48,021 bases of DNA, from sequence record PQ900155.1; one strand, given 5' to 3'. Under the pieces are notes generated by a model, which worked only from the letters and a program-made list of their open reading frames with translations, was not told the DNA's origin and ran no database searches. The position numbers were made by a program, and so were the translations under genes. This DNA comes from Escherichia phage vB_Eco_CWW26. Every line of letters begins with the position of its first letter. The stretch's first letter is position 1. Of the stretch, positions 1 to 48,021 are shown one piece after another.

Positions 1-300
1 TACTCGTCAACACCTCATTTTACCCCGAAATACCCGAGCTATCGGGGTGGTGAATTTACATTCACAATCATAGGTTTACGCGCATAACCGAAAACCCCGT
101 ACATTCTTCCCTTCTTCCTTCTTATAAACCTTATAAACTATACATTATGTATTATACTACATTTATACTATATATTATATACTTTCTATTACTACTAATT
201 ACTATTTTATAAGGGTATAAGGGTAATAAGTAGTATAGTACTGAAAGGTAAAGAGTTTTTGATACCCCGATGAAGTACCCCGAACGACTTTCAACGGGGT
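1..300. repeat. 300-bp direct repeat, copy A (hairpins, TACCCCGA iterons, ~130-bp AT-rich core)
   Basis: By eye, 1-300 matches 14844-15143; 47945-48021 matches 1-77 (genome wrap). Hairpin CCCCGA-N13-TCGGGG at 23-47; TACCCCGA at 21, 263, 276; AT-rich 111-240. Confidence 0.9.
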
Positions 301-365
301 ATGTGGCAATGACGGTACAGTCATGGTAAAATCGTGGCATTAGAGACAATGACGTGGGGACCATC

Positions 366-4645: not shown

Positions 4646-4674
4646 ACTCTACTCCATACTGACGAGGCCGTCAA
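4646..4674 (-). promoter_or_regulatory. sigma70-like promoter, palindromic -35 (leftward)
   Basis: Minus strand reads TTGACG-gcctcgtcagtatggag-TAGAGT (17-bp spacer); palindrome CTGACGAGGCCGTCAA at 4659-4674; about 40 bp upstream of ATG 4610. Confidence 0.55.
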
Positions 4675-6411: not shown

Positions 6412-6441
6412 AGTATACGTCATCCCTGACGAACTCGTCAA
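6412..6441 (-). promoter_or_regulatory. sigma70-like promoter, palindromic -35 (leftward)
   Basis: Minus strand TTGACG-N18-TATACT; palindrome CTGACGAACTCGTCAA at 6426-6441. Confidence 0.5.
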
Positions 6442-7704: not shown

Positions 7705-7733
7705 ACTATGGCATACTCTGACGGACTCGTCAA
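7705..7733 (-). promoter_or_regulatory. sigma70-like promoter, palindromic -35 (leftward)
   Basis: Minus strand TTGACG-agtccgtcagagtatgc-CATAGT; palindrome CTGACGGACTCGTCAA at 7718-7733. Confidence 0.5.
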
Positions 7734-10462: not shown

Positions 10463-12043
10463 ATGTTTATAGAAAAAGCAAAAGAAATACATAAAGGAAA
10501 ATATGACTATTCCAAAGTGGAATATGTAAACAACAAAACACCTGTGACGATAGTTTGCCCGGTGCATGGCGATTTCGTTCAACTACCACAGGGACACCTG
10601 AAATGCGAAATAGCGTGCCCAAAATGCAGAATCGACGACGTTTATGACCGAATGATACAACAGGCGCGAGCGATTCATGGTGACAAGTACTCATACGTCC
10701 GGGAATCGTTCATTTCCGTAGTCAAGAAAATGTCCATAGTGTGTCCGGTACACGGGGTGTATTACATGACACTGAATAACCACGTTCACGGGGGTGCGGA
10801 GTGTAAACCCTGCGCACTGGCAAAGCGTGGTGAGTTACACCGAAAGACACTTGATAGTTTTGTAGAAGACGCGAAAAAAGTTCATGGTGACAGGTACGAT
10901 TATTCCAAAGTTGTTTACGAGGGTAACAAAAAGAAAATAACCATCACTTGTGCAAAACATGGTGACTTTAAACAGGAACCATCTTCACATCTTTCAGGAA
11001 GAGGTTGTCCAAAATGCGGCCTTGAGTCAAGAGTAAGCAAAAGCATGAGTACTCTTGAAAGATTCATTCGCAAAAGCAGAGTCATACATGGTGATAAATA
11101 CGATTATTCCAAAGCGGTGTATAAAGGTAGTGACCAAAAATTAACCATAATTTGTCCGGTACATGGTGAATTTTCCCAATACGCAAACAACCACTCTACT
11201 CTTGGCCATCAATGCCCGACGTGTTCTAAAGCTGGTGTGTCCCGGGGTGAATTTGAAGTCTTCAACTTCGTCCGTTCCATCTGTCCCGATGCGGTACAAT
11301 CTGACCGTACAGTCATTGGACCGCTGGAACTTGATGTTGTAGTGCCGTCGCGCAATCTGGCAATTGAATTTAACGGCCTGTACTGGCACGATGAACGCAC
11401 GAAAAACAAGAAGTATCACATCACCAAGCGTCACCGCGTGGAAGCCGCAGGATACCGTCTGATAAGTATCCGTGAGGATGTCTGGAATGAGCGCCGCGAA
11501 CAGGTGGAAAGTATCATTCGCAACGCACTCGGCGTGACATCCGACAAAGTGTTTGCCCGCAAATGTAATATCGTGGAAGTTTCGACGTCTGAAGCGAAGG
11601 TATTTATGGAGAAACACCACGTGCAGGGTTTCCGGGGTGCGACCGTACATTATGGTCTGCAACACGATGATACATTAGTCGCCGTAATCAGTCTGACAAA
11701 CTGGCAGAAAAAGAATGAGTGGGAACTGGTACGATATGCAACCGCGTGTAATGTTCCGGGTGGACTGTCCCGCCTGTGGAAACATGCTACCACGGTTAAC
11801 AACATTGTCCGTGCCTATTCATACGTTGACCGGGATTTGTTCAGTGGTTCCGGTTATATTAATGCCGGTTTCACACTTTCAACCACGACAGTGGGGTTCA
11901 GGATTGTAAATGGTTGCACAACCGAATCGCGTGAGAAGTGGAACCGCGCACCAGATGAAATGACACAGACGCAATGGTACGAATCAGAAGGTGTATCACG
12001 CATCTACGATTCTGGACAGGACAAGCTGTTATGGGTAGAATGA
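10463..12043 (+). CDS. free-standing homing-endonuclease-like protein (4 zinc-ribbon repeats + Vsr/PD-(D/E)xK-like C-terminal domain)
   Basis: Four repeats of HGDKYDYSKV...CP.HG.F...H..G..CPKC; C-terminal LDVVVPSRNLAIEFNGLYWHDE; AT-rich codon usage; AAGAGGAG SD; inserted between capsid terminator and next structural gene. Confidence 0.55.
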   Translation: MFIEKAKEIHKGKYDYSKVEYVNNKTPVTIVCPVHGDFVQLPQGHLKCEIACPKCRIDDVYDRMIQQARAIHGDKYSYVRESFISVVKKMSIVCPVHGVYYMTLNNHVHGGAECKPCALAKRGELHRKTLDSFVEDAKKVHGDRYDYSKVVYEGNKKKITITCAKHGDFKQEPSSHLSGRGCPKCGLESRVSKSMSTLERFIRKSRVIHGDKYDYSKAVYKGSDQKLTIICPVHGEFSQYANNHSTLGHQCPTCSKAGVSRGEFEVFNFVRSICPDAVQSDRTVIGPLELDVVVPSRNLAIEFNGLYWHDERTKNKKYHITKRHRVEAAGYRLISIREDVWNERREQVESIIRNALGVTSDKVFARKCNIVEVSTSEAKVFMEKHHVQGFRGATVHYGLQHDDTLVAVISLTNWQKKNEWELVRYATACNVPGGLSRLWKHATTVNNIVRAYSYVDRDLFSGSGYINAGFTLSTTTVGFRIVNGCTTESREKWNRAPDEMTQTQWYESEGVSRIYDSGQDKLLWVE

Positions 12044-14824: not shown

Positions 14825-14853
14825 AGTATATCAATGATTGACGTACTCGTCAA
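14825..14853 (-). promoter_or_regulatory. sigma70-like promoter, palindromic -35 (leftward)
   Basis: Minus strand TTGACG-agtacgtcaatcattga-TATACT (17-bp spacer); palindrome TTGACGTACTCGTCAA 14838-14853 straddles the repeat boundary. Confidence 0.6.
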
Positions 14854-15143
14854 CACCTCATTTTACCCCGAAATACCCGAGCTATCGGGGTGGTGAATTT
14901 ACATTCACAATCATAGGTTTACGCGCATAACCGAAAACCCCGTACATTCTTCCCTTCTTCCTTCTTATAAACCTTATAAACTATACATTATGTATTATAC
15001 TACATTTATACTATATATTATATACTTTCTATTACTACTAATTACTATTTTATAAGGGTATAAGGGTAATAAGTAGTATAGTACTGAAAGGTAAAGAGTT
15101 TTTGATACCCCGATGAAGTACCCCGAACGACTTTCAACGGGGT
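14844..15143. repeat. 300-bp direct repeat, copy B
   Basis: Matches 1-300 by eye; flanks diverge immediately outside. Confidence 0.9.
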
Positions 15144-15198
15144 GTGTGGATACTGACGCAATGCTGTGTGATAATGTCTTGACAAACGAGGGCACACT

Positions 15199-18808: not shown

Positions 18809-18837
18809 ACTATAACCCACCTTGACGAGTCCGTCAA
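18809..18837 (-). promoter_or_regulatory. sigma70-like promoter, palindromic -35 (leftward)
   Basis: Minus strand TTGACG-gactcgtcaaggtgggt-TATAGT; palindrome TTGACGAGTCCGTCAA 18822-18837. Confidence 0.6.
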
Positions 18838-22519: not shown

Positions 22520-23166
22520 GTTTAATTAACCTTCTGGTAAAGCGCGGTCCACAGCTTGGGTCGCTTCAGTTCGATGCCGTCCTGTCTGATGACCTTGATG
22601 CCAGCGTGGATATCGTGCAGTACCCCATTGAGACAGGTACGCCAATTGCAGACCACATTATCTATCAGCCTATTCGTTACACGATGACAGGTGCAGTATC
22701 GAACAACCCGTTGAAAGTTAGTATCACCGATTTCACCGGGGCATTGACAAATCTTGTCGATGACAATCCGTTCATTGCAGCGGGTGCCGGTCTGTTCGCG
22801 GGGTGGTTGAGCGGCTCAAATGAAACTCGCTCCAGTACGACACTGAATACTTTGCTCGATTTCATGTACTCCGGTCAGGTATTCACAGTGGATACGGGCG
22901 AAATTACGCTGAACAATATGGTCATTCAGCGTATTGGGCGCTCTAAAGACCCGGAGAATGAGAACGGATTGATATTTGTTGCTGAACTACAGCAGATTGT
23001 CACGCTTGACCGCGTGGCGAACGGTTCACAACCGGCACAATATCAGCTGAACAGTAACGACGTTTCCAGCACGTCCATATCAGGACTGATTGAGCGTGGT
23101 TATATCAATGTGAAGACAGCTGCAACGAATGTTGCCGACCAGGTTACGACACTTTTGGATTTGTAA
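22516..23166 (+). CDS. hypothetical tail / baseplate hub protein
   Basis: ORF track; last gene before the non-coding island. Confidence 0.4.
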   Translation: MSLINLLVKRGPQLGSLQFDAVLSDDLDASVDIVQYPIETGTPIADHIIYQPIRYTMTGAVSNNPLKVSITDFTGALTNLVDDNPFIAAGAGLFAGWLSGSNETRSSTTLNTLLDFMYSGQVFTVDTGEITLNNMVIQRIGRSKDPENENGLIFVAELQQIVTLDRVANGSQPAQYQLNSNDVSSTSISGLIERGYINVKTAATNVADQVTTLLDL

Positions 23167-23193
23167 AAAAAAAAAAGCCCCGTACTCCGGGGC
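23165..23193 (-). terminator. rho-independent terminator for leftward transcription
   Basis: Hairpin GCCCCG-TACTC-CGGGGC (23177-23193) preceded on + strand by A12, so on the minus strand it is followed by U12. Confidence 0.6.
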
Positions 23194-23677
23194 AAACATA
23201 CTGAAGCGCAATGGAGAGAGAGTATGGTTTACAGTTGTGGCGGCCGGTGCTGATCTCCGGCTTGTATATGGACTACCCGTCGTCGCCATGGTGAGCCATT
23301 ACCTCACCATCTAGCTGATAAGTTAGCGCATCAGCCCGCGCATTCACCACAACTCTAAACCATCGTCGCAACTGTTGTTATGTTTCACAACATTACCCCA
23401 GTCACTTACGGCTTACCCGTCAGCAAGATTGGACCACCTCCTCGGGGGTTACAACAGGAAAGAGCATTCAGTTGTACCTGCCAGTTGTGCCACTAGGAAA
23501 CGCTTTCGCAGACCGTTAAGCTCTTTGCAAGTTCTTTAATGCTCTTACCTGTTGTATTGGTCGAACCGCCACGGTGACCAACCGCATTCGTGCATGCCTG
23601 GCTACACATTCCGGCTACCCGCTGGTGCGAAGGAATAGGACACCCCGGACCGCTAAGACACATGTGCTATATGCCTG
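23194..23677 (-). ncRNA. putative leftward non-coding transcript (~480 nt)
   Basis: Region has no ORF of 60 aa or more; bracketed by a leftward promoter (23685-23713) and terminator; several hairpins. Class not recognised. Confidence 0.25.
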
Positions 23678-23684
23678 TGAATAA

Positions 23685-23713
23685 ATAATTACATTGTTTG
23701 ACGTGATTGTCAA
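23685..23713 (-). promoter_or_regulatory. sigma70-like promoter, variant palindromic -35 (leftward)
   Basis: Minus strand TTGACA-atcacgtcaaacaatgt-AATTAT; + strand palindrome TTGACGTGATTGTCAA 23698-23713; weak -10. Confidence 0.35.
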
Positions 23714-35822: not shown

Positions 35823-35851
35823 ATACTACGTTGGTTTGACGAGTACGTCAA
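35823..35851 (-). promoter_or_regulatory. sigma70-like promoter, palindromic -35 (leftward)
   Basis: Minus strand TTGACG-tactcgtcaaaccaacg-TAGTAT; palindrome TTGACGAGTACGTCAA 35836-35851; 5'UTR hairpin GGGAGAC-N5-GTCTCCC. Confidence 0.55.
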
Positions 35852-37315: not shown

Positions 37316-38350
37316 TCACTCCCCCAAATGCGCTTTAACACGTGCCACAAACGGACCGATTTTATCCGGGTGGGCGTTCAGTTCCTGCACCGACGACATA
37401 CCGTCCTGCGCCAGCAGCGTGTTCACCGTTGCCACATCAATCTTACCGTGACGCTCGGTCAGGAAGGTCATGAGGCGTGGGAAGTCCCAGTCGGTTACTT
37501 CCGGTACAGGCGGTGCAACAACTACCGGCGGCGGTACAGGTTTCTCGTATGCAGGAGCACCACCGTGACCATTTTCACACGTTACGCCGCTGGGCGATGA
37601 AAATTGAGGTTTCATGCACACTGAACACAGGTCACCAGTTTCAGGATGTGTCACTTCCGATTTCCAGTCATCAGTAGGAGGCGGCACAGGAAGTGGCGGA
37701 ATACCTGCAACGGTCTGCTCGGTTACCACGCCAGCGTCAGTGTGGAAGTCATCGGCCGGAGGTGTTACCGATGGTTCAGGAGTGACGCAAATATGTGGAG
37801 TTCCGTGATGGTCACAACCTTCATCAATGCACAATTCTTCACCGGATGGTGTCACCGGTACAGGTTCTTGAGGGAAACGTAATTCATCCTGTACTCGCTG
37901 AATAGTTGCCGCCCACTGCTCCTCATCCATGCCCTTCGGCTTACGACGCAGACGCCACGTACCGTCCGCATTAAGCGCCTTACTGGTGGAGTGGATACGC
38001 TCGTCCCACGGTGTACCGGTTGAGTCGGTAGTGGGTGGGTCGATATCCGGTTTAACTGGTACGCACAATTCAACCATTTCGCGAGTTACTTCAATACTTC
38101 TCCCGTCACGGGGAGCCAGCGACTCAACCTGTTGAGCAGTCGTGTCGACTTCCGGCTCATCCATCATTTGTGGCGCGGATTGTTGCAGTAATTCAGTGCT
38201 GATAACCAATGGGGTTACGGTCACATCGACTGGGTGACCATCTTTTTTGCTGGCAATTTCGATAAGCGCTTTACCGAATTGAAGCAATGCGATGGTATCG
38301 TCGTTCGGGATGGTTAAAGTGATAAGGTTGGTCATTGTTCTACGCTCCAT
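37316..38350 (-). CDS. modular Pro-rich zinc-binding replication-module protein
   Basis: 344 aa; Cys/His clusters CIDEGCDHHGTPHIC and CSVCMK...CENGHGG; contains GTPWDERIH also found in the polymerase C-terminus. Confidence 0.5.
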   Translation of the reverse strand: MERRTMTNLITLTIPNDDTIALLQFGKALIEIASKKDGHPVDVTVTPLVISTELLQQSAPQMMDEPEVDTTAQQVESLAPRDGRSIEVTREMVELCVPVKPDIDPPTTDSTGTPWDERIHSTSKALNADGTWRLRRKPKGMDEEQWAATIQRVQDELRFPQEPVPVTPSGEELCIDEGCDHHGTPHICVTPEPSVTPPADDFHTDAGVVTEQTVAGIPPLPVPPPTDDWKSEVTHPETGDLCSVCMKPQFSSPSGVTCENGHGGAPAYEKPVPPPVVVAPPVPEVTDWDFPRLMTFLTERHGKIDVATVNTLLAQDGMSSVQELNAHPDKIGPFVARVKAHLGE

Positions 38351-38654: not shown

Positions 38655-38683
38655 ACTCTATATCACCATGACGCAACCGTCAA
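38655..38683 (-). promoter_or_regulatory. sigma70-like promoter, palindromic -35 (leftward)
   Basis: Minus strand TTGACG-gttgcgtcatggtgata-TAGAGT; + strand palindrome ATGACGCAACCGTCAA 38668-38683. Confidence 0.5.
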
Positions 38684-38697
38684 CACTAATTTTAAAT

Positions 38698-38726
38698 TTG
38701 ACACGGGGTGGGTGGTGCGACATAAT
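38698..38726 (+). promoter_or_regulatory. sigma70-like promoter (rightward)
   Basis: TTGACA-cggggtgggtggtgcga-CATAAT (17-bp spacer), about 35 bp upstream of ATG 38761. Confidence 0.55.
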
Positions 38727-38760
38727 GACGCCATCGTCAATAGTTGAGAGGAAGTGAGAG

Positions 38761-41721: not shown

Positions 41722-41996
41722 TGGCTGTTATTACACTTGAGCAAATTATCGAACTTCAATATCGAAGACACAACAACGTGTCGAATCAACAATTCAAACA
41801 ACTTAACGGAAAATATTCTTCCAGAGGTTTGAGAAATGCGCACCGTTACGCCGATATTGAGCGCCACAAATGTTGGCCACGCGGTAAAACTTATTACCGT
41901 CTCTACCGTCGCCAGATGAATCCACACATCAACTTTACTGTTTCACCGGGTCATCCGGACAGATATAAACACATGTCGTTGCGGATGTGGAGTTGA
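41718..41996 (+). CDS. hypothetical basic protein (92 aa)
   Basis: ORF track; ATGA overlap with VRR-NUC gene. Confidence 0.4.
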   Translation: MMAVITLEQIIELQYRRHNNVSNQQFKQLNGKYSSRGLRNAHRYADIERHKCWPRGKTYYRLYRRQMNPHINFTVSPGHPDRYKHMSLRMWS

Positions 41997-42353: not shown

Positions 42354-44711
42354 ATGACACATGTGAATCCCCCGGTGCAGGGGGCCGATTCCCTGCACTT
42401 TATCGTCTGCAAAACAGTATCTTCACAGAAGAAGCCCGGGCGCACGGAGAAGATGCCATGTAATGCCGCTGGTGATGTAGTCAGTCTGCACGTTGCGGAC
42501 CGTATGACTCATGCTCAGGCGGTTGCGGCGGCTTCTGCACTGGGTGAGTCATATCGCCCCGCAGTCATTCTCACGGGTGACGGTCGTTTCTGCGTGGATA
42601 TCGACGGTGCACTACAGGATGATAACACCTGGTCACCGCTCGCGCTGGAGTTGTGCACCACTTTTGCCGGTTGTTACGTGGAAGTGAGTAACAGCGGTAA
42701 AGGCTTGCACATTTTTGGTTACAGTCCGTCCATCCCTGAGCATAGCTGTAAAAATATTTCGCTGCACATCGAACTGTACACGTCTGACCGTTTTATCTGT
42801 CTGGGAAGTGGTGCACGGGGTGACATGATGTTTAACGCGTCTGTACCACTCAACGCCACGGTTGCACGTTATTTCCCACAGACCGAGCAAGTTACGGCGA
42901 CGGAATGGACCACAACTCACGTCGAAGGCTCATGTCCGATTGAGGACGATGCGAAACTCATCGAAAAAGCCTGTTCGAGTAAAGGTGGTGTCGCGGCTGT
43001 TTTCGGTGGCAAAGCAACATTCAAAGACCTGTGGACGCGTAATGTTGAGGTACTGAGTGATGCGTATCCAGATGAGGACCGCGAGTATGACGGGTCGAGC
43101 GCCGATGCCGCACTGGCCCAACATTTATCGTTCTGGACCGGTGGTAACTGTGAACGTATCGAACGCCTGATGTGTCTGTCTGCGCTGGCACGTCCTAAAT
43201 GGGACAGTCACAAATCGTACATGCGACGTACCATTCTGGGTGCTTGCGCGCGTCAGACAACTTATTACAGTGTCGGCGCACCGATTGAACTGGTGACCCC
43301 TGCTCAGGTCATTGAGACGGGTGCACCAGTTATCCGCAGTGGGTATCAATTTATTGGTGGCTCGCAGCTTGTTGACCACTTCAAAGGTTGTGTATATGTG
43401 GCAGACAGTCACCGTATTCTCACCCCCAACGGTCAGATGCTGAAGTCTGAGCAGTTTAACGCGATGTACGGTGGCTATGTGTTTGCGCTGGATGATGGTA
43501 ATGAGAAGACCACTAAAAAGGCTTTCGAAGCGTTCACCGAGAACCAGTGTATCATGTTTCCGAAAGTTGACCGCTCAACGTTCCGTCCGGACCTGCCGCA
43601 GGGTGCTATCATCGAAGAAGATGGTCTGCGTCATGTCAACGCATACGTACCGGTGACAGTAGCAAGCGTCCCGGGCGATGTGACACCTTTCCTTACTCAT
43701 CTGGCCAAACTGTTACCCGTCGAGCGTGACCGCGACATCCTGCTGTCCTACATGGCAGCATGCGTACAGTACAAAGGGACCAAGTTCAAATGGGCACCAT
43801 TGTTGCAGGGCGTCGAGGGTAACGGTAAAACACTGTTCACACTGTGCGTAATGGAAGCGGTTGGTTCACGCTACAGCCACATGCCGCCAGCGCAGGAAAT
43901 CGGTGAGAAGTTCAACGCCTGGCTGTTCGATAAAATATTTATCGGCGTGGAAGATATTTACGTTCCGGAGCAGAAACTTGAACTGATTGAAACACTCAAG
44001 CCAATGATTACCGGTGAGTACCTCGCTAAGCGTGCGATGCAGCAGGACCAGGTAATGCACCGCCTGTGTGCTAACTTCATGTTTAACAGTAACCACAAGA
44101 ACGCCGTGCGCAAGACCGCTAATGACCGCCGGTTCGCTATTTTCTACACCGCGCAGCAGGAGCATATGGACATTGTGCGCGATGGCATGGGTGGCGACTA
44201 CTTCCCCAACCTGTACGACTGGCTCAAACGTGGCGGTGGATTTGCAGCCGTAACGCATTATCTGGAGAACTACGCCATTCCCGCACAACTTAACCCGGCG
44301 ACACATTGTCAGCGTGCCCCGGAAACAAGTAGCACCCATGAGGCTGTGACAGCATCGCTCGGTAGTGTCGAGCAGGAAATCATGGAAGCAATCGACGAGG
44401 GTCGCCAGGGCTTTGCGGGCGGTTGGGTGAGTAGTAAGGCACTGGATAATCTGTTACGCCAGATGCGCGCTGACCGCGCTGTACCGGTAGGTAAACGTCG
44501 TGACATGATGCGTCAACTGGGTTACGACTGGCACCCGGCGCTTAAAGACGGACGTGTGAACAATGTGATAATGATTGACGGTGGTAAGCCGCGGTTGTAC
44601 ATCAAGATTGGACACATTCACGCTAACCTCACAAATGCGGCGGACGTGGCGCGCCATTACGCAGCGGCACAGGGTGATACAAGTGCGTTAGCCTTTGCAG
44701 AAACTAAATAA
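42354..44711 (+). CDS. primase-polymerase (AEP) fused to SF3/D5-like helicase
   Basis: AEP motifs CVDIDG and SNSGKGLHIFG in N-terminal half; Walker A GVEGNGKT in C-terminal half. Confidence 0.65.
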   Translation: MTHVNPPVQGADSLHFIVCKTVSSQKKPGRTEKMPCNAAGDVVSLHVADRMTHAQAVAAASALGESYRPAVILTGDGRFCVDIDGALQDDNTWSPLALELCTTFAGCYVEVSNSGKGLHIFGYSPSIPEHSCKNISLHIELYTSDRFICLGSGARGDMMFNASVPLNATVARYFPQTEQVTATEWTTTHVEGSCPIEDDAKLIEKACSSKGGVAAVFGGKATFKDLWTRNVEVLSDAYPDEDREYDGSSADAALAQHLSFWTGGNCERIERLMCLSALARPKWDSHKSYMRRTILGACARQTTYYSVGAPIELVTPAQVIETGAPVIRSGYQFIGGSQLVDHFKGCVYVADSHRILTPNGQMLKSEQFNAMYGGYVFALDDGNEKTTKKAFEAFTENQCIMFPKVDRSTFRPDLPQGAIIEEDGLRHVNAYVPVTVASVPGDVTPFLTHLAKLLPVERDRDILLSYMAACVQYKGTKFKWAPLLQGVEGNGKTLFTLCVMEAVGSRYSHMPPAQEIGEKFNAWLFDKIFIGVEDIYVPEQKLELIETLKPMITGEYLAKRAMQQDQVMHRLCANFMFNSNHKNAVRKTANDRRFAIFYTAQQEHMDIVRDGMGGDYFPNLYDWLKRGGGFAAVTHYLENYAIPAQLNPATHCQRAPETSSTHEAVTASLGSVEQEIMEAIDEGRQGFAGGWVSSKALDNLLRQMRADRAVPVGKRRDMMRQLGYDWHPALKDGRVNNVIMIDGGKPRLYIKIGHIHANLTNAADVARHYAAAQGDTSALAFAETK

Positions 44712-44735
44712 GCCCTTCGGGGCTTTTTTTTTTTT
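44711..44735 (+). terminator. rho-independent terminator after primase-helicase
   Basis: AGCCC-TTCG-GGGCT followed by T12. Confidence 0.75.
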
Positions 44736-44745
44736 GCAATTAGTG

Positions 44746-44774
44746 TTGACGAGTTCGTCAATGGGGAGTATAGT
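44746..44774 (+). promoter_or_regulatory. sigma70-like promoter, palindromic -35 (rightward)
   Basis: TTGACG-agttcgtcaatggggag-TATAGT (17-bp spacer); palindrome TTGACGAGTTCGTCAA 44746-44761; about 30 bp upstream of ATG 44805. Confidence 0.65.
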
Positions 44775-47320: not shown

Positions 47321-47899
47321 TTATCTTCCACAGTTGCGGCATTCACCATTTGCCACATAACGTTCCGCAATAATATTACAATGCTTGCAAGGCTCATACG
47401 GAATATACCAGCGTTTGCCGTCAGCGATGGCCTGCTGGCGCGGTGATTTAATTTTAATGACTCCAACGTGAATTCCCGATTCACTCAGTAACAGGGCGTT
47501 TTTCATCGTCTCCAACTGTTCATTTAAAACAGAAATATTATGCTCAATCATGGCGATGTTTTCACGCAGTGCATCGACCTCACCAGCGGTGTCAACAATG
47601 GCTGCTTTTGGTTTTTTCCATTCCCCCGTCATGCGTTGTTCGGTTAAGCAGAAGACACATTTACCAGCAGTGTTACGGACGCCCGGATGTCCACATTCAC
47701 TGTTCGGTTTCTTCTGTACTCTCCACGAGCGACCATCATTAAGACCGTCGAGAACTTTTTGATAGAGTTCGTTGCGTGCAGGAAGACCCATGTTTTTCGC
47801 TTTCACAAAATCATGATGGTCATGAAGTGCACAAATACTACACAATTCTGTTTCTTTAAATTTTGTAGTGCCGTGACAATTATCTATAAGATGAATCAT
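47321..47899 (-). CDS. Cys-rich zinc-finger protein (192 aa)
   Basis: Three CxxC-type clusters (C-x8-C-x2-C; C-x11-C-x2-C; C-x2-C-x12-C-x2-C) and a central coiled-coil-like region; first gene downstream of the repeat-associated leftward promoter. Confidence 0.45.
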   Translation of the reverse strand: MIHLIDNCHGTTKFKETELCSICALHDHHDFVKAKNMGLPARNELYQKVLDGLNDGRSWRVQKKPNSECGHPGVRNTAGKCVFCLTEQRMTGEWKKPKAAIVDTAGEVDALRENIAMIEHNISVLNEQLETMKNALLLSESGIHVGVIKIKSPRQQAIADGKRWYIPYEPCKHCNIIAERYVANGECRNCGR

Positions 47900-47924
47900 G
47901 TTTCTCTCCTTTTGTAGAGTATAT

Positions 47925-47954
47925 ACTATAAAATAATAGAGAATTACTCGTCAA
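47925..47954 (-). promoter_or_regulatory. sigma70-like promoter, half-palindrome -35 at repeat boundary (leftward)
   Basis: Minus strand TTGACG-N18-TATAGT; -35 is the first 10 nt of repeat copy C; the second half-site is absent here. Confidence 0.45.
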
Positions 47955-48021
47955 CACCTCATTTTACCCCGAAATACCCGAGCTATCGGGGTGGTGAATT
48001 TACATTCACAATCATAGGTTT
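47945..48021. repeat. start of 300-bp repeat (wrap-around copy of 1-77)
   Basis: 47945-48021 matches 1-77 by eye; implies a 47,944-bp circular or permuted unit. Confidence 0.9.

Follow-up and report, generated by a model that had tools for sequence, protein, structure and literature searches.

A 300-bp non-coding repeat present twice in a Jedunavirus genome: a possible control cassette for the head and tail operons

A 300-bp sequence occurs twice, in identical form, in the genome of an Escherichia phage, and our comparison with related phages indicates that it is an old, conserved non-coding control region. Judging from the sequence, it most likely switches on the head-gene and tail-gene blocks. 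As a specific model, we tentatively favor a duplicated divergent-promoter control cassette, which serves two morphogenesis operons and is bound by a putative protein. A pair of replication elements is the main rival of this model. Of the Klebsiella phages isolated for therapy, Jedunaviruses are some of the most frequent and, to our knowledge, nothing is known about the timing of their gene expression or their replication start sites. The repeat provides a defined cis element for this group, with exact boxes, four predicted promoters, two loci, and a short list of candidate proteins.

The window analyzed was the whole 48,021-nt stretch of DNA (sequence record PQ900155.1), which we treated as Escherichia phage ZCEC13 (Jedunavirus), with gp numbers following the RefSeq annotation. 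The repeat is found at these positions:

1-300, plus strand: copy A of the cassette, between gp88 (leftward) and terS (rightward), 100% identical to 14844-15143
14844-15143, plus strand: copy B of the cassette, between gp30/dUTPase (leftward) and the neck/tail-completion gene (rightward)
47945-48021, plus strand: wrap of copy A (bases 1-77 again), an assembly overlap and no third copy

A repeat search confirmed the 300-bp repeat reported in the initial annotation, with 100% identity over 300 nt and a start-to-start spacing of 14,843. An exact repeat of this length within 48 kb cannot have arisen by chance. The same search found 47945-48021 to be identical to 1-77 in a record annotated as circular, in agreement with its earlier reading as the wrap of copy A. 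Because these last 77 nt are a circular-assembly overlap, the true unit is 47,944 bp. The flanks had been said to diverge immediately, which is correct for the left side only. On the right, the blastn match between the copies reaches 306 nt, with a single mismatch, A (copy A) versus G (copy B) at 301, and a common TGTGG after it, so that five of the next six bases are shared and the flanks diverge only after them. The copies divide the 47,944-bp circle into arcs of 14.8 kb and 33.1 kb, with the gene content originally described: the short arc carries terS through capsid plus dUTPase and the long arc carries the tail, lysis, and replication genes (RefSeq annotation). Recombination between the direct repeats to give 14.8-kb and 33.1-kb sub-circles is formally possible, and the products would be defective because both arcs carry essential genes.

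Both copies occupy divergent intergenic regions in the RefSeq annotation. Copy A marks the boundary of the replication/early genes and the head-packaging genes and precedes terS-terL-portal, and copy B marks the boundary of the head and tail genes and precedes the neck, sheath, and tube genes, likewise in 12 relatives. The repeat had been called non-coding, and this description stands with a qualification, as RefSeq calls tiny ORFs inside it (gp01-03 and gp31-32). The two longest ORFs in the repeat lie in different frames in copies A and B and enter different flanks. The annotated mini-ORFs are probably spurious, since their frames, their extents, and the flanks that they enter differ between the copies.

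About 70 phage records carry the cassette twice, with one copy preceding terS and the other preceding the neck gene. The two-copy state, always at these syntenic positions, extends across Jedunavirus and also beyond it, to Peatvirus PEAT2 and the unclassified vB_KsaM-C1 and Pantoea phage AAM22. A comparison with related phages had been proposed as a check, and both copies were kept, upstream of terS and of the neck gene, in all 12 relatives examined. This distribution argues against recent duplication, one of three explanations that the initial annotation had offered for the perfect identity of the copies. phiPLPE, tried as a deeper relative, had no equivalent two-copy cassette and only a short promoter-type repeat. 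We found no description of the repeat in the literature on Jedunavirus and related phages or in a dwarf-myovirus comparison; the GenBank records of KpV52 and KpV79 already carry predicted promoters at these loci.

Each copy contains about nine TACCCCG/CGGGGTA boxes, which form two dyads, one tandem pair, and single sites around a core of 19% GC. The elements are listed here with the numbering of copy A:

21-49 (copy B: +14843), no strand assigned: left box cluster, with TACCCCG at 21-27, degenerate TACCCGA at 31-37, and inverted CGGGGTG at 43-49
93-99, plus strand: single box AACCCCG, then a pyrimidine tract CTTCCCTTCTTCCTTCTT (bases 105-122)
119-238, no strand assigned: AT-rich core of 120 nt with 19% G+C, the genome-wide minimum for this window size (outside the repeats, no window is below 28%)
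211-225, minus strand: two tandem degenerate boxes, AAGGGTAT-AAGGGTAA
263-301, no strand assigned: right box cluster, with TACCCCG at 263-269 and 276-282 and inverted CGGGGT at 295-300

The boxes are strongly concentrated in the cassettes. The sequence TACCCCGA has 10 occurrences compared to 1.2 expected, seven of them in the repeat (six from copies A and B and one from the wrap). When 13 genomes were taken together, the two 340-nt regions contained 83 of the 169 TACCCCG boxes, a density that is 68-fold higher (binomial p ~1e-105). In vB_KsaM-C1 and AAM22, the boxes have retained their identity, their order, and the 13-nt and 8-nt spacings, although the DNA between them has diverged, as one would expect if proteins bind there. 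The 13-nt spacing of the TACCCCG pair is the same in KsaM-C1 and in copy B of AAM22. The single box at 93-99 is kept in most copies and appears as AAAACCCCG in KsaM-C1, and the tandem boxes at 211-225 read GGGGTAT-GGGGTAA in JD001 and MEW1 and CGGGGTAT-CGGGGTAT in KsaM-C1. In copy A of pKp383, both arms of the right dyad are changed in the same way (TACCCTGA...TCAGGGTA).

Four sigma-70-like predicted promoters flank the two copies symmetrically and face outward:

47925-47954, minus strand: P_L(A), leftward sigma-70-like promoter, with -35 TTGACG in the repeat (bases 5-10), an 18-nt spacer, and -10 TATAGT in the unique flank
14825-14853, minus strand: P_L(B), leftward promoter, with -35 TTGACG inside the repeat, a 17-nt spacer, and TG-extended -10 TATACT in the unique flank
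303-332, plus strand: P_R(A), for terS-terL-portal, with weak -35 GTGGCA and extended -10 TGgTAAAAT, beginning 3 nt past the repeat
15147-15175, plus strand: P_R(B), for the neck/tail operon, with weak -35 TGGATA and extended -10 TGtGATAAT, beginning 4 nt past the repeat

All four are consensus matches, and their number per scanned region is not above that in shuffled sequence. The leftward promoters have a near-consensus -35 within the repeat, and P_L(A) matches the consensus at 10 of 12 positions. They belong to a promoter class that recurs in this genome, as they share GTGTTGACG exactly with two other intergenic promoters, at 38678 and 44743, and P_L(B) overlaps the palindrome TGACGTACTCGTCA at 14839-14852. 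The rightward promoters combine a weak -35 with a TG-extended -10. Dyad distances were computed from inferred starts, assumed to lie 7 nt after the -10 and thus near 339 and 15182 for the rightward and near 47918 and 14818 for the leftward promoters. On this basis, the left dyad (ACCCCG/CGGGGT, centered at 35) falls about -60 from the P_L start, and the right dyad (centered at 288.5) falls about -50 from the P_R start in both copies. Both rightward promoters therefore pair a poor -35 (GTGGCA or TGGATA) with a dyad located in the range of roughly -40 to -62. The distance from the right unit to P_R is constant in 20 of 22 aligned copies. The flank containing P_R(A), 301-345, is 97% identical across genomes and that of P_R(B) is 90% identical. 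The P_R(A) core is kept even though terS is 67-97% identical and terL has been replaced in four of 10 relatives.

Gene conversion, the second explanation offered for the perfect identity, was supported by the comparison of genomes. The identity of copies A and B is 0.81 within a genome versus 0.72 between genomes (permutation p<1e-4), and for the AT-rich core it is 0.745 versus 0.565. Copies that are more alike within than between genomes indicate gene conversion. The nearest neighbor is the copy's own paralogue for 13 of 22 copies, and copy A of ZCEC13 has a B-type left end. Two regulatory copies evolving in concert in a 48-kb virulent phage offer a clean, small system to study phage gene conversion. 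The third explanation, functional constraint, is supported for the right ~125 nt and the adjacent promoter cores, which are conserved; the perfect identity of the central ~150 nt may be due in part to assembly. The segment 200-262 is the most conserved stretch of the repeat (92% over all 22 copies) and consists only partly of boxes. Its conservation is left unexplained by the control-cassette model. The AT-rich core is 58% identical between copies, with indels, and its sequence and length differ between genomes and are common to both copies of one genome. Its composition, rather than its sequence, appears to be constrained. The left 175 nt are mosaic, and unrelated sequence takes their place in KB2, KLPPOU148, and copy A of PEAT2.

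We propose that a cis-acting cassette fills the whole gap between two divergent promoters and that the genome carries two copies because two morphogenesis operons need co-regulation. The boxes would be occupied by a sequence-specific DNA-binding protein, with gp88, gp78, and gp72 as candidates. When bound at the dyad near -50, this protein would activate the weak rightward promoters of the head and tail operons and, at the dyad near -60, it would modulate the leftward promoters of accessory genes, possibly by bridging the cassette ends over the flexible AT-rich core. The near-identity of the copies would result from repeated gene conversion during replication/recombination together with purifying selection on the right ~125 nt. 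Leftward gene islands interrupt the structural genes, and the two late promoters would therefore need read-through or the help of further promoters. A region of 300 bp, with about nine boxes and a 120-bp core of 19% GC, also exceeds the needs of most activator-dependent promoters, and an iteron origin fits these features too.

Several known systems resemble the proposed cassette. In the phi29 early/late switch, the divergent promoters A2c/A2b and A3 are controlled from multiple p4 sites, with a phage regulator activating the late promoter and repressing the early one. The two systems share a region of a few hundred bp, strong and weak divergent promoters, and a repeated short recognition sequence, and in phi29 the regulator acts through a multimeric nucleoprotein complex on bendable DNA. 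In contrast to phi29, where there is one region and the regulator is known, ZCEC13 has two regions and promoter timing inferred from sequence, and no sequence or protein homology was found between them. Late promoters of the P2 family are activated by the zinc-finger proteins Ogr, Delta, and B at a dyad centered near -55. The likeness here is the same dyad element just upstream of promoters with a poor -35 at several morphogenesis operons, and a small cysteine-rich protein, gp88, as candidate activator. The P2 motif is TGT-N12-ACA, whereas that of ZCEC13 is TACCCCG-N10-CGGGGTA, gp88 has no Pfam match including Ogr_Delta, and the element of ZCEC13, which comprises about nine boxes and an AT-rich core, is much the larger of the two. 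The stoperators of cluster A actinobacteriophages and the start-associated sequences of cluster K are 13-17-bp sites present in tens of copies. They are also short motifs at many gene starts or promoters, and the TGACG-N4-CGTCA palindrome of ZCEC13 is of that kind. The cassette differs in being a composite 300-bp element, with exactly two copies that evolve in concert.

The protein encoded next to copy A was considered as a possible partner of the boxes:

47321-47899, minus strand: gp88, first gene read from P_L(A); its conserved product has a coiled coil and two motifs resembling zinc ribbons

gp88 adjoins copy A in every relative. It is a speculative candidate for the box-binding protein, and its candidacy is only positional. 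Searches of Pfam (including Ogr_Delta), PHROGs, and PDB sequences, and a Foldseek search with its AlphaFold model (pLDDT 84), gave no informative match to a family, sequence, or fold. We therefore set gp88 aside as an identifiable regulator, as it had no recognizable DNA-binding fold in the sequence or model searches. Its identity among relatives ranges from 36 to 99% while the boxes stay unchanged, an observation that, like the missing fold, sits poorly with the control-cassette model. Pfam also gave nothing for gp30, and the sole clear HTH was the TetR_N domain of gp78. No cognate activator of a known family (Ogr_Delta zinc finger, p4, or Mu C) was found with Pfam or, for gp88, with the PDB fold search. 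The TetR-like HTH protein gp78 and the small conserved gp72 are other phage candidates for box binding.

The main rival is that the copies are two cis-acting replication elements, in which TACCCCG iterons flank an AT-rich core that unwinds when a phage initiator binds. We consider this possible, though unlikely. The copies could be two origins, or one origin and one helper region, and the flanking divergent transcription would help to open the core. Short repeats beside an AT-rich element are what an iteron origin has, and here about nine boxes, in either orientation, surround the 120 nt richest in A+T in the genome (19% GC; next lowest outside the repeats, 28%), a core constrained in composition and not in sequence. 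Precedents exist in SPP1, whose oriL and oriR are bound by G38P, and in P4, whose ori and crr are bound by the alpha primase-helicase. As in ZCEC13, two separated loci have common short boxes beside an AT-rich segment; SPP1 also has a pac-type genome of ~45 kb, and the P4 replicon has a primase-helicase. In those phages, however, the initiator is known and its gene contains or adjoins one locus, whereas no initiator gene adjoins either copy here. The neighbors are gp88, terS, dUTPase, and the neck gene, and the replication genes are located at 31.5-47 kb. No homology to G38P or to the DNA-binding domain of P4 alpha was found, and in ZCEC13 both copies are tied to the promoters of late operons. 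At each locus the rightward promoter lies at a fixed distance of 3-4 nt, a constraint that an origin would not need. There is no exact DnaA box and no DnaA-box cluster at the repeats. Cumulative GC skew reaches its minimum away from the repeats, near 38 kb, where the replication genes diverge, a result of little weight because skew in this genome depends on gene orientation. ZCEC13 does encode its own primase-polymerase/helicase (gp79), DNA polymerase, and helicase, in favor of an origin. gp79 was examined as an origin binder like P4 alpha and rejected, since it matches only NrS-1-type primase-polymerase and DUF5906 helicase domains and its sequence matched neither the origin-binding domain of P4 alpha nor any origin binder with a solved structure. 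The recognition sequences of NrS-1 are TTTGGTTA and GTGG (PMC8718748). They are unrelated to the TACCCCG boxes.

Control and replication could also be combined in dual-purpose sites, where the protein that binds the TACCCCG boxes opens the AT-rich core for replication and switches on the head and tail operons. We regard this as doubtful. If it were true, late transcription would be coupled to replication from two origins at module boundaries, and the enforced similarity of the cassettes would make them preferred crossover points for module exchange in co-infection.

It is improbable that the promoters alone matter and that what remains of the 300 nt was duplicated as a passenger, is homogenized by gene conversion, and serves mainly as a conserved junction for module exchange in co-infection. 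The concerted evolution demonstrated above and the mosaic, replaceable left 175 nt would agree with this, as would the terS/terL module swaps that begin right beside the conserved P_R(A) core. However, at least four genera retain the array of boxes with the same order and spacings, even where the DNA between the boxes differs and where the left parts have been replaced, and 200-262 is as conserved as structural genes. Whatever its role, a 300-bp direct repeat is a site where engineered or evolving genomes can lose 14.8 kb or swap modules.

We see little chance that the cassette is a pac region bound by the small terminase, with copy B as a second initiation site that is tolerated because packaging is headful. 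Copy A immediately precedes terS, where a pac or cosB site is usually found. The pac sites of P1 and SPP1 have two clusters of short boxes around a bendable centre, which the cassette resembles. TerS belongs to Pfam Terminase_2, TerL has pac-type relatives (T1-like phages and Aaphi23), and the relative IME346 is without fixed termini (PMC9007800). Instead of the single site expected of a pac, there is a copy B, 14.8 kb from terS and before the tail genes. Furthermore, the boxes do not co-vary with the terminase: they are constant while TerS is only ~60-65% identical in PEAT2, KsaM-C1, and AAM22, and they are the same in several genomes where TerL has been replaced. Several GenBank records begin within the AT-rich core of copy A. 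Physical termini at this location were considered and rejected, as the break points of KpV52 and cmc20193 are 3 nt apart and located at A/B mismatches. Because they differ and coincide with such mismatches, these record starts are read as assembly-graph node ends.

A structured RNA (such as an antitermination element like HK022 put), a small protein, or a miniature mobile element is very unlikely. The GC-rich dyads could form hairpins, but the best Rfam match was at chance level (E 0.66), fold z-scores were weak (-1.79 and -1.43 compared to shuffled sequence), and the predicted promoters would fire away from the repeat; a structured RNA was rejected on the first two grounds. RefSeq does call small ORFs in the repeat but, as described above, they differ in frame and extent between the copies. 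A miniature transposable element or insertion sequence was rejected since there is no target-site duplication in the flanks, the sites are syntenic in all relatives, and searches of E. coli genomes and plasmids with the 300-mer gave no match.

An assembly artefact, with a single true copy or a second one created by a misjoin, is extremely improbable: the record does start exactly at the repeat with a 77-nt end overlap, as if the assembler took the repeat as one graph node, but the ~70 records come from many laboratories and assemblers, gene order over both junctions is alike in all relatives, and copy-specific differences are present in several of these records (A-B identity of 95.8% in JD001, 95.4% in KpV52, and 88% in cmc20193). 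The initial annotation had named an artefact or chimera as what would refute the second copy. On the evidence of these records this origin is excluded, because they were assembled independently and show both copies. A direct terminal repeat was rejected as well, as the 77-nt end overlap belongs to copy A of a circular record and the second full copy is internal. The record opens at base 1 of the repeat and closes 77 nt into it, which resembles what a de Bruijn assembler (k=77) produces when its path crosses a repeat that has been collapsed into one node. In that case, k-mers reaching into the flanks would anchor ~76 nt on either outer side, but bubble-popping could have homogenized the ~150 nt in the center, which would help to explain the perfect identity. 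An exact-pattern scan of IMG/VR returned seven fragments only, mostly contigs broken at the repeat. The cassette accounts for short-read assemblies of these phages breaking or starting here.

The window of 48,021 bases matched Escherichia phage ZCEC13 (ON086804.1 / NC_071140.1) base for base; this phage is a virulent myovirus in the genus Jedunavirus. The two copies of the repeat, copy A (1-300, between gp88 and terS) and copy B (14844-15143, between gp30/dUTPase and the neck gene), are 100% identical, as first noted, a perfect identity that carries a caveat because the central ~150 nt may have been homogenised during assembly. Their flanks had been described as diverging immediately. This held on the left, from the first outside base, but on the right a mismatch at 301 is followed by five common bases before the copies diverge. 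The final 77 bases (47945-48021) equal the first 77, and the record is annotated as circular; its end is therefore the wrap of copy A, as had been supposed, which leaves a unit genome of 47,944 bp. Owing to the overlap the deposited length is greater, and RefSeq gp01 is a join across the same artefact. Since the record opens at the repeat's first base and self-overlaps by 77 nt, we infer that its ends are characteristic of a de Bruijn contig (k=77) crossing one collapsed repeat node twice. In that case, the outer ~76 nt of each repeat end would be anchored by flank-spanning k-mers, and bubble-popping could have erased differences that the copies had in their central ~150 nt. The gene content of the two arcs was as described, with terS, terL, portal, protease, capsid, head-completion genes and dUTPase on the short arc and neck, tail, baseplate, lysis and replication genes on the long arc.

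A blastn search with the 300-mer matched 70 phage records, nearly all at two places (three where record ends split a copy). Almost all were Klebsiella Jedunavirus, plus Pectobacterium phage PEAT2 (genus Peatvirus). So many independent records contradict an assembly artefact or chimera as the origin of the pair. In 10 of 10 fetched relatives, copy A immediately precedes terS and copy B immediately precedes the neck gene. The gene order of ZCEC13 is also found in vB_KsaM-C1 and Pantoea phage AAM22, both missed by blastn, and the two intergenic regions again share sequence (blocks of 88-90% in KsaM-C1; 78% over 195 nt in AAM22). This two-copy state at syntenic sites contradicts recent duplication, one of three causes suggested in the initial annotation. 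No such pair was seen in Iodobacter phage phiPLPE, a more distant dwarf myovirus. The repeat is real and conserved, and it is useful for the annotation and engineering of these therapy-relevant phages; our literature search found no published description of it. Two cassette matches each were also seen in Klebsiella phage Kpn112 (KJ021043.1, 35,560 bp) and IMG/VR contig 3300045988_050704 (35,164 bp), members of the same phage group. Either record may be an incomplete assembly or a deletion variant; Kpn112 retains the head arc and, thus, is not the simple sub-circle product.

Similarity between copies A and B varies among the relatives, as listed below.

Identity of copy A to copy B within relatives
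RCIP0080: 100% over 300 nt
pKp383: 100% over 233 nt
KB2: 100% over 150 nt
JD001 and KpV52: about 95%
cmc20193: 88%
PEAT2: 86% over 84 nt

The unit common to every copy is the right ~125 nt (ZCEC13 176-300), in which segment 200-262 averages 92% identity across all 22 copies and is conserved like the capsid and sheath genes. The left 175 nt are a mosaic among genomes. In KB2, KLPPOU148 and PEAT2 a different sequence is substituted in the left part of copy A, and it still holds a TACCCCG...CAGGGTA dyad and an AT-rich stretch. Mean A-B identity over positions 1-300 was 0.81 within genomes and 0.72 between genomes (10,000 permutations, p<1e-4), and in the AT-rich core it was 0.745 and 0.565, respectively; for 13 of the 22 copies the nearest neighbour was the other copy in the same genome. 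Some variant blocks occur in both copies of one genome, such as the pKp383/MEW1 core and the choice between GGGG and AGGG within the tandem boxes. At its left end, ZCEC13 copy A has TCGTCAA, the form typical of copy B, where other A copies have AGGTCAA; this suggests a B-to-A conversion tract extending to base 1. Because the flank is close enough to be spanned together with these bases, the B-type end is not an assembly effect. Together with the higher within-genome identity, it bears out the proposed gene conversion between copies, whose source is likely the same recombination activity between the 300-nt direct repeats. As a formal consequence, such recombination would split the circle into 14.8-kb and 33.1-kb products, as had been pointed out; in concatemers it would delete or duplicate arcs. 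We treat sub-circle formation as a cost and not a function, since essential genes would be missing from each product, both copies are stably inherited together, and the analysis gave no sign of such products.

Each copy is bounded by outward-facing predicted sigma-70-like promoters, leftward (P_L) and rightward (P_R).

Predicted promoters flanking copies A and B
P_L(A), minus strand: -35 TTGACG at 47954, spacer 18, -10 TATAGT ending 47925
P_L(B), minus strand: -35 TTGACG at 14853, spacer 17, -10 TG-TATACT ending 14825
P_R(A), plus strand: -35 GTGGCA at 303, spacer 18, -10 TG-TAAAAT ending 332
P_R(B), plus strand: -35 TGGATA at 15147, spacer 17, -10 TG-GATAAT ending 15175

Repeat bases 5-10 form the -35 of both leftward promoters, and the rightward -35 elements begin 3-4 nt past base 300. 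Matches to the promoter consensus were not above the count in shuffled sequence; the predictions are supported by symmetry, conservation and recurrence. The leftward-promoter nonamer GTGTTGACG occurs elsewhere only at 38678 (minus) and 44743 (plus), and from its exact recurrence, intergenic position and shared downstream layout these sites look like one promoter class. The rightward cores are copy-specific yet near-invariant across genomes (A 97%, B 90%), P_R(A) being conserved although the adjacent terS is 67-97% identical among relatives. In four of the ten relatives (cmc20193, PEAT2, KpV52 and RCIP0080), terL has no detectable nucleotide similarity to the ZCEC13 gene (814-2262) and terS is divergent too. 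Set against the conserved promoter core just upstream, this points to a module-exchange breakpoint directly beside copy A. The GenBank records of KpV52 and KpV79 carry predicted promoters at the cassette loci.

A 14-bp palindrome, TGACG-N4-CGTCA, was found at 17 sites (≤1 mismatch; 10 exact) versus 2.3 expected, including 310-323, 4660-4673, 6427-6440, 7719-7732, 14839-14852, 18823-18836, 23699-23712, 35837-35850, 38669-38682, 38726-38739 and 44747-44760, among others. The majority of inspected sites are intergenic or in promoters, often overlapping a TTGACG -35, and the palindrome resembles an operator or promoter element used across the genome, perhaps with the TetR-like HTH protein gp78 as candidate partner. 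It is also repeated in vB_KsaM-C1, and phiPLPE has a related motif. Strong hairpins with long A or T runs at operon ends (23166-23200, AAAAAAAAAAAAGCCCCGTACTCCGGGGC; 44711-44745, AAGCCCTTCGGGGCTTTTTTTTTTTT) are probably terminators, the second being directly followed by a GTGTTGACG promoter.

Within the repeat, TACCCCG/CGGGGTA boxes surround an AT-rich core.

Layout of the repeat (copy A coordinates)
22-27 and 43-48: left dyad, ACCCCG / CGGGGT
93-99: single box, followed by a pyrimidine tract
AT-rich core: 120 nt, 19% G+C
211-225: two tandem degenerate boxes
263, 276 and 295-300: right cluster, TACCCCG (first two) and CGGGGT

The core is the genome's lowest-GC window, the next lowest outside the repeats having 28%. 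TACCCCGA occurs 10 times in the window versus 1.2 expected, with seven matches in the repeat (six in the two copies and one wrap duplicate). Across 13 genomes, the two 340-nt regions hold 83 of 169 TACCCCG boxes, and box density is 68-fold higher there (p about 1e-105). KsaM-C1 has perfect tandem boxes (CGGGGTAT-CGGGGTAT); in KsaM-C1 and AAM22 the boxes retain their order and their spacings of 13 and 8 nt while the sequence between boxes has drifted. Both right-dyad arms are altered together in pKp383 copy A (TACCCTGA...TCAGGGTA). Assuming transcription starts 7 nt past the -10, the computed dyad centres lie at about -50 from both P_R promoters (right dyad) and about -60 from both P_L promoters (left dyad). 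MEW1 copy A (near 38343) and pKp383 copy B (near 41913) each have an extra GGGGTAT-box-rich segment of ~100 nt (…GGGTAGGGGTATTAGGGGTATCG…) between cassette and rightward promoter.

The simplest account, which we favour tentatively, is that the repeat acts as a control cassette for two divergent promoters, with one cassette per morphogenesis operon. A putative protein that binds the boxes would switch on the weak rightward promoters and adjust the activity of the stronger leftward ones. Such a cassette would follow a logic like that of the phi29 p4 switch region and of P2-family late promoters; as the searches gave no homologous regulator, it is not a member of either family. Elements of this kind are familiar; the presence of two copies that evolve in concert is unusual.

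The main rival, that the cassettes are iteron-type replication origin elements, is doubtful. Boxes on both sides of an extremely AT-rich core do look like an iteron origin, and SPP1 (oriL/oriR) and P4 (ori/crr), which carry the same iterons in two distant regions of a small genome, would be precedents. However, no initiator gene adjoins either copy, and gp79 matches are limited to primase-polymerase (NrS-1-type) and helicase (DUF5906) domains. The cumulative GC skew reaches its minimum near 38 kb, DnaA boxes form no cluster, and the fixed register to the promoters is nothing an origin would require. Control and origin functions could also coexist in the cassette. A pac site is unlikely, given the equivalent internal copy and boxes that do not co-vary with TerS. 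The only relative examined for termini lacks fixed ends (PMC9007800). RNA, peptide, mobile-element and artefact readings all failed their tests. The 300-mer had zero matches among 5,426 E. coli genomes and 72,556 plasmids.

As to regulators for the control cassette, Pfam gave no match for gp88 or gp30, and for gp78 it gave only a TetR_N HTH. gp88 (47321-47899, minus strand) is the conserved gene read from predicted P_L(A) in every relative, and its family is confined to the ZCEC13 phage group and a few relatives (Pantoea, Edwardsiella and Shewanella phages). It has a central coiled coil and two invariant zinc-ribbon-like motifs, C-x-H-P-G-V...C-x-x-C and S-P-R-Q-x-A...K-W-Y...C-x-x-C...Y-V-A-N-G-x-C-x-x-C. 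Its predicted model (pLDDT 84) had no fold match in the PDB. Among relatives its sequence identity ranges from 36 to 99% while the boxes are constant.

RefSeq lists many tiny ORFs (20-40 aa) with implausible names, such as NADH-ubiquinone oxidoreductase chain 3, glycosyltransferase and restriction-modification S subunit (39-104, 202-324, 14882-14947, 14995-15195 and many others). Five fall inside the repeat, and the tiny ORFs are probably spurious. Lastly, the endonuclease-like gene gp23 contains an 87-nt internal direct repeat (10883-10969 and 11087-11173; 74% identity, 204 nt apart), which suggests a duplicated domain.
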